From IMG/VR virus record IMGVR_UViG_2563366968_000005, positions 1 through 43,077 of that record: DNA of 43,077 nt, one strand, 5' to 3'. Numbering within the stretch: position 1 is the stretch's first letter; each line of letters starts with the position of its first letter. This DNA is from a virus (taxonomy: Duplodnaviria; Heunggongvirae; Uroviricota; Caudoviricetes). This document shows positions 6,001-9,000 of the stretch, one piece after another. Made by a program: the position numbers.

Positions 6001-9000
6001 TTCATCTGCCTGGGTGTACGTAATACAACGTTGATAACCCATAGCCTTTGCTGCCCGCCAGACAGCACCATAAAGCGCGCTGTTAGCGTTGCGTTCTCCT
6101 GTGGTACATGTGCGATTTACTTCAAGCGTTAATCCATCGTCCAAATGTCGTGCAACAGGTCTACCGGCTGTCGCCACACCTATCAATTCTCCGGCATCAT
6201 TTCTCAGACCAATGCTGAATTTATGCCCCACCGGGGGTTTATTGTGTCGGTGATGTCTGGATATAAACGCTTTCGCAACACGAAGAGTAACCGGTGAAAT
6301 TTGCATTCTCACTCTCCTTTGATGCGAATGCCAGGGGCGCGTGGCACATTAACTTCCACGATGCGCACTGTTGGTTTGTACATCTCAATCGCTGTCAGCC
6401 AGTCAGCTCCTGTCATGCGCTTTTCCACATCGCCATTAGTCCACTGAACCGGTACACCAATAGCCTTCATCGCGATTTCTATTTCCCCGGCGATGGCGCT
6501 TTTTCCGCAACCAGTAAAACCAGAAACAACGACAAGAACTTCGCCTTTGGCTGGTTTTATTTCCCGTGCTTCCAGTTCTGCAATGCGCTTCTCTGCGGCT
6601 TCCAGCTTCTCGCGCATATCGTCAACGTACTCGACCAGAGATCCGCCAGCAGGAATTTCGCATTCCTCGACCAGTTGGAAGTAGATATCAGCTGCGGCCC
6701 GTGTGTTGCTATGCCTAGCGTCGCCCATCTCACCTTCACGAAGAGCATCGCGTTCGGCGGTAAGATTGGCTATTTTGCTGTCTTTGCCTTCCAGCTCAAC
6801 GCGCAGCCTCCCAACCGTAAGCGCAATATCCTCGTTCTCCTGGTCACGGCGTTTGATGTATTGTTGGTTTCTTTCCCGTTCATCCAGCAGTGCCAGCGCG
6901 ATATCTGGCGAAAAGTGCTTCATAAAATCGTTAAGCGCATTAATTCGCTGATCGAAAGGCATTACAGGTGCTTCACCAGCAATTTTTGTTTTTTCAGCGA
7001 TTTCACGAAGCTTTTGATAATCAATCTTGCTCACTGGTTGCCTCCTTTGCGCCACATCGCATTCAGATATTTGTTTTGATTCACTGATGGAAAAGAATTT
7101 CTCTTAAGCAATTCCTCTCTCGATGGCATTGGCTTTACGCGTTGGCGAATAATCATTTCTGCCGGAAGAATGCCGGGATTGTATGCAAGTCCTCTCATGG
7201 TAAATTCCTCAGTCATTACTGATAGCGCCATAGCGTGAGCGGTAATTACGCAGGCGCGGGTCGATATATTCAGGGAAGTGGGTATATGTGGCTTTGCGGA
7301 ATGGTCGGATTGATGTCTGGTAAATTCGCTCGTGTTCTTCTTTCTCTGCAAGCCATATACAGTGGCGAAATTCCTTTTCCTCTTTCGTTTCCTGCGGTAG
7401 AGACATTATTCGATCGTAGTTTTTTCTGAATTTATCCAGCACCTCCGCCTTGGAGCTACCGGAGCAATTGCGCGGGTCATCCGCACCATACAGAGGCGCT
7501 GGCATGATTTTCTCCTGATTAAATTGCGTGAATAGCGTGACGAGGGAAGGGGAGAGTTACTGGTGCAAAGGGTATATCGTCGTCAAAATCCATCGGAGGT
7601 TCGTTGTGTTGTGCTGGTGATGATTGCTGCTGTGGCTTCTGTGATTGCCTGCTGGCTGCTTGTTGTTTGCTGTCGCCAATGCCGCCAAGCATTTGCATCA
7701 CGCCATTAATTCCGACATGAACCTCGGTTGTGTAACGGTCTTGCCCTGACTGGTCTTTCCACTTTCTGGTTCTCAGCATTCCCTCGAAATAAATCTGATC
7801 ACCTTTTTTCACATACTGCCCCACGACCTCAGCCAGTTTCCCGGATACAGCAACACGATGCCATTCAGTCAATTCCTTTTGCTCGCCAGTATTTTTATCT
7901 CGCCATTGTTCTGACGTGGCTATTGTCAGGTTAGCGAACGCTGTACCTGATGGTGAGTATCGAACTTCCGGGTCTTGTCCTACCCGACCAAGGATAATCA
8001 CCTTATTTACGCCTCTGCTTGCCATTTATGCCACCTGTTTTAGTTCGTTAACTCTGATGTTCATTACCTGAACGCATTTAGCCTGCGCCTCCTCGTTGCC
8101 AGCCATTAATTGCCAGTCACGCTGATAACGCTCGATGAGTTTTTTCTTGTCAGTTTCTGTTGATGCATAATCGCTGAAGTCTTTCAGGATTTGTTCGCAG
8201 TCAACCGATGGAGATTTCTGGTTGGTATTTTCTGGTGATGGTTTGTTATCTGATGCTGGGATTGCCCATCCCGGCAGCGATGGAGGGAGCCAGTAAAATC
8301 CTGTTCCATCCTTGAGTTTTGCCCTGTGCCATCCCTGCTTTTTATCGAGAGATGTTTGTGCGAAACCTTCCTCAAGGTTATACAGATACCGACCGATTCC
8401 CCACTGAACGGCAGCGCGCTTCATTGCACCGGAACGACCACCTTTGACGGCTTCTACCTGCGTGTTTTCAGCAGCATCCCATTTGGTTACCCATTCGGAA
8501 TCAATCTTGATTGATATGCCGCATTCAACTCCGCCGTTGTTGGGAATATCGCGGTATTCATTGCGCCATCCTGCTTTGCCGCAAACATCGTCCAGGCGCT
8601 TCATGATTGCCCGGTTCGTGACATAAGCCAGCACCATAGCCCACACCTTGCCATCGCGTGTTTTACCGCTTTGCTGTATTCGCCATTCGATATCTTCAGG
8701 GCTGAATGGCTCATCGAATTTGTTCAAATCCATAATTCACCTCAGAATGGACATGGCCCAAGGAAATAACGCTGATTTAATACTTCAGTCTTTGCCGCAT
8801 TTAAAAATACGCGAACACCTTCACGATCTCCCTTCTGGCGATACATTAACGCCTGCTGCGTGTACATGCGTCTCTGTAACTTGCTCTCCTTCACTGTGGT
8901 TGCAAGTGACATGAATATCTCCTTCGTTACCGATTAATTCTTTCATCTGACGAATGAATTCTTCGTCTGACCAGTTATCTGTAAAACTCATTTCCTGCGA

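Follow-up and report, generated by a model that had tools for sequence, protein, structure and literature searches.

The SSB (single-stranded DNA-binding protein) gene of IMGVR_UViG_2563366968_000005, a Caudoviricetes virus record whose whole stretch of 43,077 nucleotides (nt) was analysed and is called the window here, encodes a protein in which the canonical acidic tip is internal and is followed by 15 further residues. To judge from its homologues, this tail is a conserved SSB add-on that was previously undescribed in the searchable open-access literature. The C-terminal tip of SSB is among the best-studied protein-interaction hubs of bacterial DNA metabolism, and its free terminal Phe is regarded as a defining feature and as a drug target. 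The most plausible functional reading of our analysis is that the tail would cover the tip and alter the set of partners that the protein binds. The initial annotation had described an SSB with 15 residues past the acidic tip at 7519-8025, and both translation of the open reading frame (ORF) and alignment to E. coli SSB agreed with this. The gene and its parts are listed below, where pLDDT is the predicted local distance difference test score of AlphaFold2, and pN and pS are the proportions of nonsynonymous and synonymous differences, respectively.

7519..8025, minus strand: ssb gene, E. coli-type SSB of 168 residues with a C-terminal extension, ATG start (ORF; PF00436, phrog_44).
7714..8010, minus strand: OB-fold domain for single-stranded DNA (ssDNA) binding and oligomerisation, residues 6-104 by Pfam (Pfam match; AlphaFold2 beta-barrel).
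7600..7689, minus strand: Gln/Pro/Ser-rich disordered linker, residues 113-142 (pLDDT 30-45; pN 0.45, the highest).
7567..7599, minus strand: canonical acidic SSB C-terminal (SSB-Ct) tip, residues 143-153, internal and not terminal (same as the final 11 residues of E. coli SSB).
7522..7566, minus strand: conserved 15-residue tail, residues 154-168, a disordered short linear motif (residue pattern; pN 0.23, pS 0.63; pLDDT ~30).
7519..7521, minus strand: TAA stop of ssb and mosaic boundary, followed in relatives by abc2 or by an inserted DnaQ-like exonuclease gene (DNA alignment, annotations).

The window SSB matched PF00436 (E=1.6e-36) and phrog_44 (E=1.6e-66), and its residues 1-115 showed 72% identity to E. 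coli SSB (PDB 1EQQ). Pfam, the sequence and AlphaFold2 indicated that the OB-fold, the disordered linker and the acidic D-D-D-I-P-F motif were all present. The alignment to 1EQQ stopped at F153 of the query, which corresponds to F178, the final residue of that chain, and residues 154-168 were left unmatched. At the DNA level, the Phe codon TTT is followed at once by GCA, without an intervening stop between the tip and the tail. Phe as the last residue, which marks a bacterial-type SSB (PF00436), was thus not found, since 15 residues come after Phe153. In all but the position of the tip, the protein reads as a bacterial-type homotetrameric SSB; on its 72% core identity, it is expected to form tetramers and to bind ssDNA. 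When the monomer was modelled by AlphaFold2 with a 109-sequence alignment, the OB beta-barrel was predicted with confidence (pLDDT ~82-85), and residues 114-168 scored ~30. The tail in this model looks like a disordered linear motif and not a folded cap; a cap folded onto the OB domain was rejected on the low score of the tail. A peptide search of the PDB matched only the tip, and no solved structure with a similar peptide beyond the tip was found there.

The initial annotation treated the extension as an anomaly, considered a recent stop-codon loss as one of two readings, and named a sequencing error at the stop codon as a refutation. An identical protein (100%) was found in three independent records, namely the phages HK75 and mEp235 and the chromosome of E. 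coli S1. The 15-residue tail was also identical in epsilon34, ECP1 and CP-1639, of which ECP1 and CP-1639 encode proteins only ~70% identical overall to the window SSB. Among the best 120 homologues from a collection of 5.8 billion proteins, the tail followed IPF in 111, which came from E. coli, Salmonella, Klebsiella, Citrobacter, Enterobacter, Kluyvera, Pluralibacter and Phytobacter. These 111 sequences share the pattern [AS]-P-[VIAL]-[TG]-L-[PQ]-[FY]-[PS]-[RK]-H-x-[IVM]-[HY]-x-[IL], in which P2 and L5 are invariant and H10 is kept in 110; the acidic tip is nearly invariant among them as well. We defined a "tip+tail" SSB subfamily of mobile elements by a broader motif after IPF, [AS]-P-x-x-L-x-[FY]-x-[RK]-H-x-[IVM]-[HY]-x-[IL]-COOH, and the window tail agrees with it at every position. 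Searches with short queries gave 14 matches only, mostly fragmentary, for 34 residues against 1.84 billion representatives, and 15 fragments for 41 residues in a word index. One variant, P0001 (165 residues, Salmonella, a cluster of 588 sequences), has a 12-residue tail, as though one terminal HAI-HAI copy had been lost; the length of the tail is therefore not absolutely fixed.

For the 81 nt of tip and tail, tail-coding DNA was detected in 405 of 5,426 complete E. coli genomes; in 297 of these it ran on from the tip within an annotated ssb, and ~108 had the tail-only configuration that goes with the HNH insertion described below. Comparison with the ssb alleles of relatives, as the initial annotation had proposed, thus revealed a conserved extension that is common in many phage SSBs, an outcome that it had itself named as speaking against an anomaly. 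A recent stop-codon loss or a sequencing error is refuted by the fixed pattern in 111 of the 120 homologues, the synonymous changes and purifying selection described below, and the occurrence of the tail on other cores and in plasmids. An accident of this genome is hardly credible, given the identical proteins in HK75, mEp235 and E. coli S1 and the hundreds of complete genomes and plasmids that carry the tail. The accompanying statement, that DDDIPF is normally the exact end of phage SSBs, is correct for most SSBs of bacteria and for many of those from plasmids and phages, and fails for this large mobile-element subfamily.

At the codon level, distant alleles from Cronobacter, Citrobacter, Providencia, Phytobacter and an uncultured Caudoviricetes virus had many synonymous changes in the tail, with the residues kept. 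Pro was encoded by CCA, CCT or CCG, Leu by CTC, CTG, CTT or CTA, and the stop was TAA or TGA. Over 11 diverged E. coli-type alleles, pN was 0.19 for the OB fold, 0.45 for the linker, 0.12 for the tip and 0.23 for the tail, and synonymous sites were saturated (pS 0.63-0.89, with 0.63 in the tail). These values indicate that the tail is under purifying selection like that on the OB fold and unlike the linker. No promoter or terminator was found in the tail region. An Rfam scan of the same region returned a sole match of 21.6 bits against a gathering score of 43, and hence no credible family, and its RNA folding had no unusual stability (z = +0.99).

The tip and the tail together form a portable unit. 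In Enterobacterales it occurs on SSBs from temperate phages, from phage-plasmids and from some conjugative plasmids, and Vibrio has a variant of it. Providencia phage PSTNGR2lys bears the unit on a divergent 142-residue SSB beside Bet, Exo and an HNH_3 protein. In Citrobacter phage Omnitron, it ends a 243-residue SSB of another family (phrog_743, no Pfam match) encoded after a Sak4-like ATPase, and the match of this protein to phrog_44 is limited to its last ~55 residues. P0134 (161 residues) combines the tip and tail with a differing N-terminal sequence and matches phrog_44 nonetheless, and Cronobacter phage JK004 (94 kb) and a syntenic 86-kb Salmonella plasmid have them on a Gly-rich E. coli-type SSB. 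Furthermore, a Providencia IncC plasmid (L025:2033-2581) and phage PSTNGR2lys (L018:2120-2548) have differing OB cores but the same final ~35 residues, from the linker end through tip and tail, which shows directly that the C-terminal module is shuffled. Among plasmid records, ~125 had the tip and tail, including the IncN plasmids p271A and pNDM-ECS01, and ~350 had the tip only. In P0131 and the SSB of a Vibrio plasmid, the first half of the tail, APIGL, is kept and the second half is different (...P[AS]LL[HN][SC]MG), and an SSB of a Salmonella IncF plasmid keeps the second half alone (...CRKAIYAIS). The tail therefore looks bipartite. We also observed a chimera, P0122 (120 residues), whose Ead/Ea22-like N-terminal part runs directly into the final ~38 SSB residues, from the linker end through tip and tail; a deletion that fused sequences across the abc2-Ea22 region is its probable origin.

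Close phage relatives with and without the tail on their SSB provide a natural tail-swap control, created by insertion of an HNH gene. In Sf6, IME10, N7, Huey, CurroJimenez and several Salmonella prophages, ssb ends in ...DDSDIPF followed directly by a stop. An HNH endonuclease ORF (159 residues) begins 9-12 nt after these stops and reads in frame into A or E plus 14 tail residues.

L005:1359-1838 (Sf6 gp26), L013:4468-4947, L014:3717-4196 and L015:2347-2826: HNH gene that separates the tail codons of ssb from its IPF codon.

The inserted gene supplies the stop of ssb and so restores an IPF-terminated SSB. This arrangement suggests a homing endonuclease, free-standing and aimed precisely at the junction of tip and tail. 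HNH relatives elsewhere (Vibrio phages, Staphylococcus phage K-like and others) align to residues 1-140 only, and the PHROG endonuclease profile stops at residue 143 of 159. Because both stop before the tail residues, the tail is native to ssb and was captured at the HNH insertion, and an origin from the HNH gene by deletion fusion was rejected on the same two limits. The 3' end of P22 abc1 was likewise rejected as the source, as abc1-bearing P22-like records match only the erf and abc2 flanks and not the tail. The annotators of Sf6 had noted an unbroken run of 14 residues common to gp26 and an "E. coli SSB". In ES18, the SSB is IPF-terminated and the tail is absent altogether. In Klebsiella phage phiKp_30 (L028:1600-1900), only a decayed stub of 13 codons is left of the HNH gene (MKICSRCHAGTRG and a stop), and an orphan tail remnant lies out of any gene downstream of the IPF-terminated ssb.

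In the sites that receive the SSB-Ct, a hydrophobic pocket takes up the terminal Phe, a basic lip anchors its alpha-carboxyl group and a basic ridge serves the Asp residues, and the alpha-carboxyl contact ranks among the most important in docking (PMC10164576). With the tail attached, the terminal Phe would become internal, and Phe153, followed by Ala-Pro, would offer no alpha-carboxylate to the basic lip of host partners. Because it is this carboxylate that the pockets anchor, canonical docking of ExoI, RecQ, RecO, PriA, chi, RecG and others would be weakened or blocked. The new C-terminus could in turn act as a docking peptide for another partner, and the ssDNA of a mobile element under a tail-bearing SSB would then be handled by a different set of proteins than DNA coated with host SSB. 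We give about an even chance to this scheme, in which the tail takes away the free carboxylate of Phe, presents another docking peptide at the new terminus and keeps host SSB clients off the ssDNA of the element. There is a precedent for the extreme C-terminus in partner choice, as the last six residues of phage HK620 SSB are needed to recruit its partner Sak4 (PMC5928155). The genes beside tail-bearing SSBs encode Rad52/Erf-like, Sak4-like AAA_24 or Bet annealases, and since this type varies, the cognate annealase is unlikely as the universal partner and was set aside. The partner is probably a conserved host protein, given that the carriers produce ssDNA or enter as ssDNA and that the adjacent recombinases vary. 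A translocation signal for a type IV secretion system was rejected as well, because PMC8406263 is silent on SSB tails and most carriers of the tail are phages.

More tentatively, the tip and tail might constitute a dedicated device by which mobile elements rewire the SSB hub, so that host nucleases, helicases and RecO are not recruited and the new C-terminus recruits a specific host factor. If so, recombination and transfer intermediates would be protected, and RecA loading and SOS induction would perhaps be dampened, or defence sensors evaded. The second half of the tail would then be matched to the host lineage, with RH-x-I-[HY]-x-[IL] in Enterobacterales and LL[HN][SC]MG in Vibrio.

Several observations weigh against a masked tip with a new docking peptide. 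The internal tip stays invariant, which is awkward if it is merely switched off and is the main unexplained point. In the viable phages Sf6, ES18 and phiKp_30, the SSB of the same module ends at IPF, and at least some backgrounds can therefore do without the tail; from these comparisons, it is taken to be advantageous rather than essential. In addition, E. coli and Salmonella phages with diverged cores have nearly the same tail DNA, and part of the uniformity of the tail in these phages is therefore attributable to recent recombination. The invariance of the tip keeps two other functions alive, each of which we consider unlikely. In one of these, the tail is a pro-peptide, a cleavable mask that a protease of the host or the element removes, perhaps on ssDNA, to free ...DDDIPF-COOH at a certain time or place. 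If the tip is put to use with its carboxylate free in the end, its invariance is as expected; directly after Phe, the residues are fixed as [AS]-P, an SprT-family metalloprotease gene lies 30 nt from the tail-bearing ssb in IncN plasmids, and the IPF-terminated SSBs produced by HNH insertion are evidently functional in Sf6-like phages. However, phage loci have no protease gene beside ssb, no known cleavage motif was recognised in the tail, and a simple mask leaves unexplained a 15-residue pattern conserved up to the final residue. In the other, of similarly low probability, the tail is a C-terminal degron or an unfoldase-recognition peptide of the ClpXP, ClpAP, Lon or FtsH type that limits the level or lifetime of the mobile-element SSB, or through which an unfoldase strips SSB from ssDNA. 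Its position at the extreme C-terminus, its disorder, its movement between unrelated cores, its presence on an HNH nuclease and its non-polar end [HY]-[AVS]-[IL] all suit such a tag, and we take this end to resemble, in composition only, the ...RRKKAI end of MuA and the ...YALAA end of ssrA. The strongly conserved first half (AP-x-G/T-L) and exact length, however, exceed the needs of a simple degron, the Vibrio version ends in ...HSMG, and a processive protease would destroy the conserved tip and OB domain too.

The remaining alternatives are much weaker. A purely DNA-level explanation is disfavoured, and it is quite improbable that the 45 nt lack a peptide function and are a conserved mosaic junction or homing-endonuclease target translated by chance. 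Such a view would account for tail DNA that is near-identical in E. coli and Salmonella phages with ssb cores only ~70-77% identical, for module boundaries exactly at the ssb stop codon, for the HNH gene exactly at the junction of tip and tail, and for SSBs that can lose the tail. Yet the Cronobacter, Citrobacter, Providencia, IncN and Vibrio alleles keep the residues and the frame despite synonymous changes, pN in the tail is half that in the linker, and no RNA or DNA signal was found. The beta clamp of replication binds peptides of the consensus QL[SD]LF or QLxLxL, with Gln first and hydrophobic residues at positions 4 and 5/6, and PVTLPF in the tail might mimic the QLxLx[LF] hexapeptide and tether SSB to the sliding clamp. 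The likeness is only one of x-V-x-L-x-F to QLxLxL/F, and among the versions from Enterobacterales both L5 and the position-7 aromatic residue are kept. Nevertheless, position 1 is Pro and not Gln in 111 of 111 sequences, position 2 accepts Ala and Glu, the Vibrio version has Ser-Thr in place of Pro-Phe and hence no aromatic residue, and the conserved second half of the tail is left unaccounted for. A clamp-binding motif was rejected on these positions and is very improbable indeed. The masking of the tip together with a changed set of partners stays our preferred reading.

The genes that flank ssb in the window are as follows.

8026..8733, minus strand: Rad52/Erf-like single-strand annealing protein gene, directly upstream of ssb and abutting it (Pfam PF04098, E=5e-26).
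7209..7505, minus strand: abc2 anti-RecBCD gene, 13 nt downstream of the ssb stop (Pfam PF11043, E=4e-58).

A GGAG ribosome-binding site of abc2 lies within 7506..7518. In the wider order of the window, Kil is found upstream. The downstream side has Ead/Ea22, DUF551 and an integrase of the lambda type, and further on there are a repressor like CI and a primase-helicase; the ssb locus is the early-left operon of a lambdoid temperate phage. DNA alignment placed the break in homology exactly at the ssb TAA, a sharp mosaic boundary. A gene for a DnaQ/Rv2179c-like 3'-5' exonuclease (PF16473) is present between the ssb stop and abc2 in some relatives and absent in others.

L002:2091-2639 (mEp235), L004:1387-1935 (epsilon34), L009:3913-4464 and L016:4525-5073: PF16473 exonuclease loci.

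Other observations concern the surroundings of tail-bearing genes. In IncN plasmids (L021:2569-3354, L022:4102-4887, L023:2467-3255 and L027:2584-3369), a gene for an SprT-family zinc metalloprotease is convergent to the tail-bearing ssb at a distance of ~30 nt, with anti-restriction genes and repA as its neighbours. That the SprT-family protein is a candidate tail-processing enzyme is pure conjecture. The IncN plasmid pCCRI24235-1 (L027:2100-2600) contains an unannotated ssb pseudogene with an internal deletion or frameshift, in which the tail codons APITLPFPNHAIHAL are retained in another frame. A few genes downstream from its tail-bearing ssb, a Klebsiella prophage has a gene (L016/L017:6461-6718) for a homologue of DNA polymerase III subunit theta (PF06440). 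In the window itself, a 165-residue ORF at 5815..6312 on the minus strand, between the Ead/Ea22-like and DUF551 genes, gave a sub-threshold Pfam match to Mom (23 bits against a cut-off of 27.1).

A conserved peptide buries the terminal Phe in a large group of SSBs from phages and plasmids, among them the model phages HK75 and epsilon34, prophages in ~5% of the complete genomes of E. coli, and IncN plasmids that carry NDM-1. This subfamily offers a natural experiment on how mobile elements may tune or evade the host SSB interactome, and the tail is a directly testable peptide for partner discovery.

A description of the 15-residue SSB extension was not found in the open-access literature searched, and comparison with known systems sets the window protein apart from each of them. 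The chromosomal SSB of E. coli (PDB 1EQQ/4MZ9) has an OB core of 72% identity, a disordered linker and an identical 11-residue tip, whereas it ends at Phe and its linker is Gly-rich; the window linker is shorter and Gln/Pro-rich, and the 15 residues are added. SSB-1 of the lambdoid phages Sf6 and ES18 belongs to the same family and occupies the same place between the Erf-like annealase and abc2, but ends at IPF, and in Sf6 the tail codons now close the inserted HNH gene. The window is colinear with HK75 and, like the HK75-type Rec module as outlined in a 2025 survey (PMC12315714), has contiguous genes for annealase, SSB and anti-RecBCD protein and no nuclease gene. In that survey, these phage SSBs are said to have had no experimental study to date, the shuffling of partner-interaction domains is placed beyond its scope, and its SSB passages do not mention a C-terminal extension (PMC12315714). 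HK620 SSB (HkaK) is also a phage SSB of a recombination module whose extreme C-terminus decides the partner, Sak4 (PMC5928155); unlike the window SSB, it has an unrelated core and ends in NDYPPF-COOH without an extra tail, and the tail described here occurs beside Sak4-like, Erf-like and Bet genes alike. Finally, the canonical plasmid and phage SSBs, such as those of F-like and other large E. coli plasmids, are likewise mobile-element proteins with the same acidic tip, but they end at IPF.

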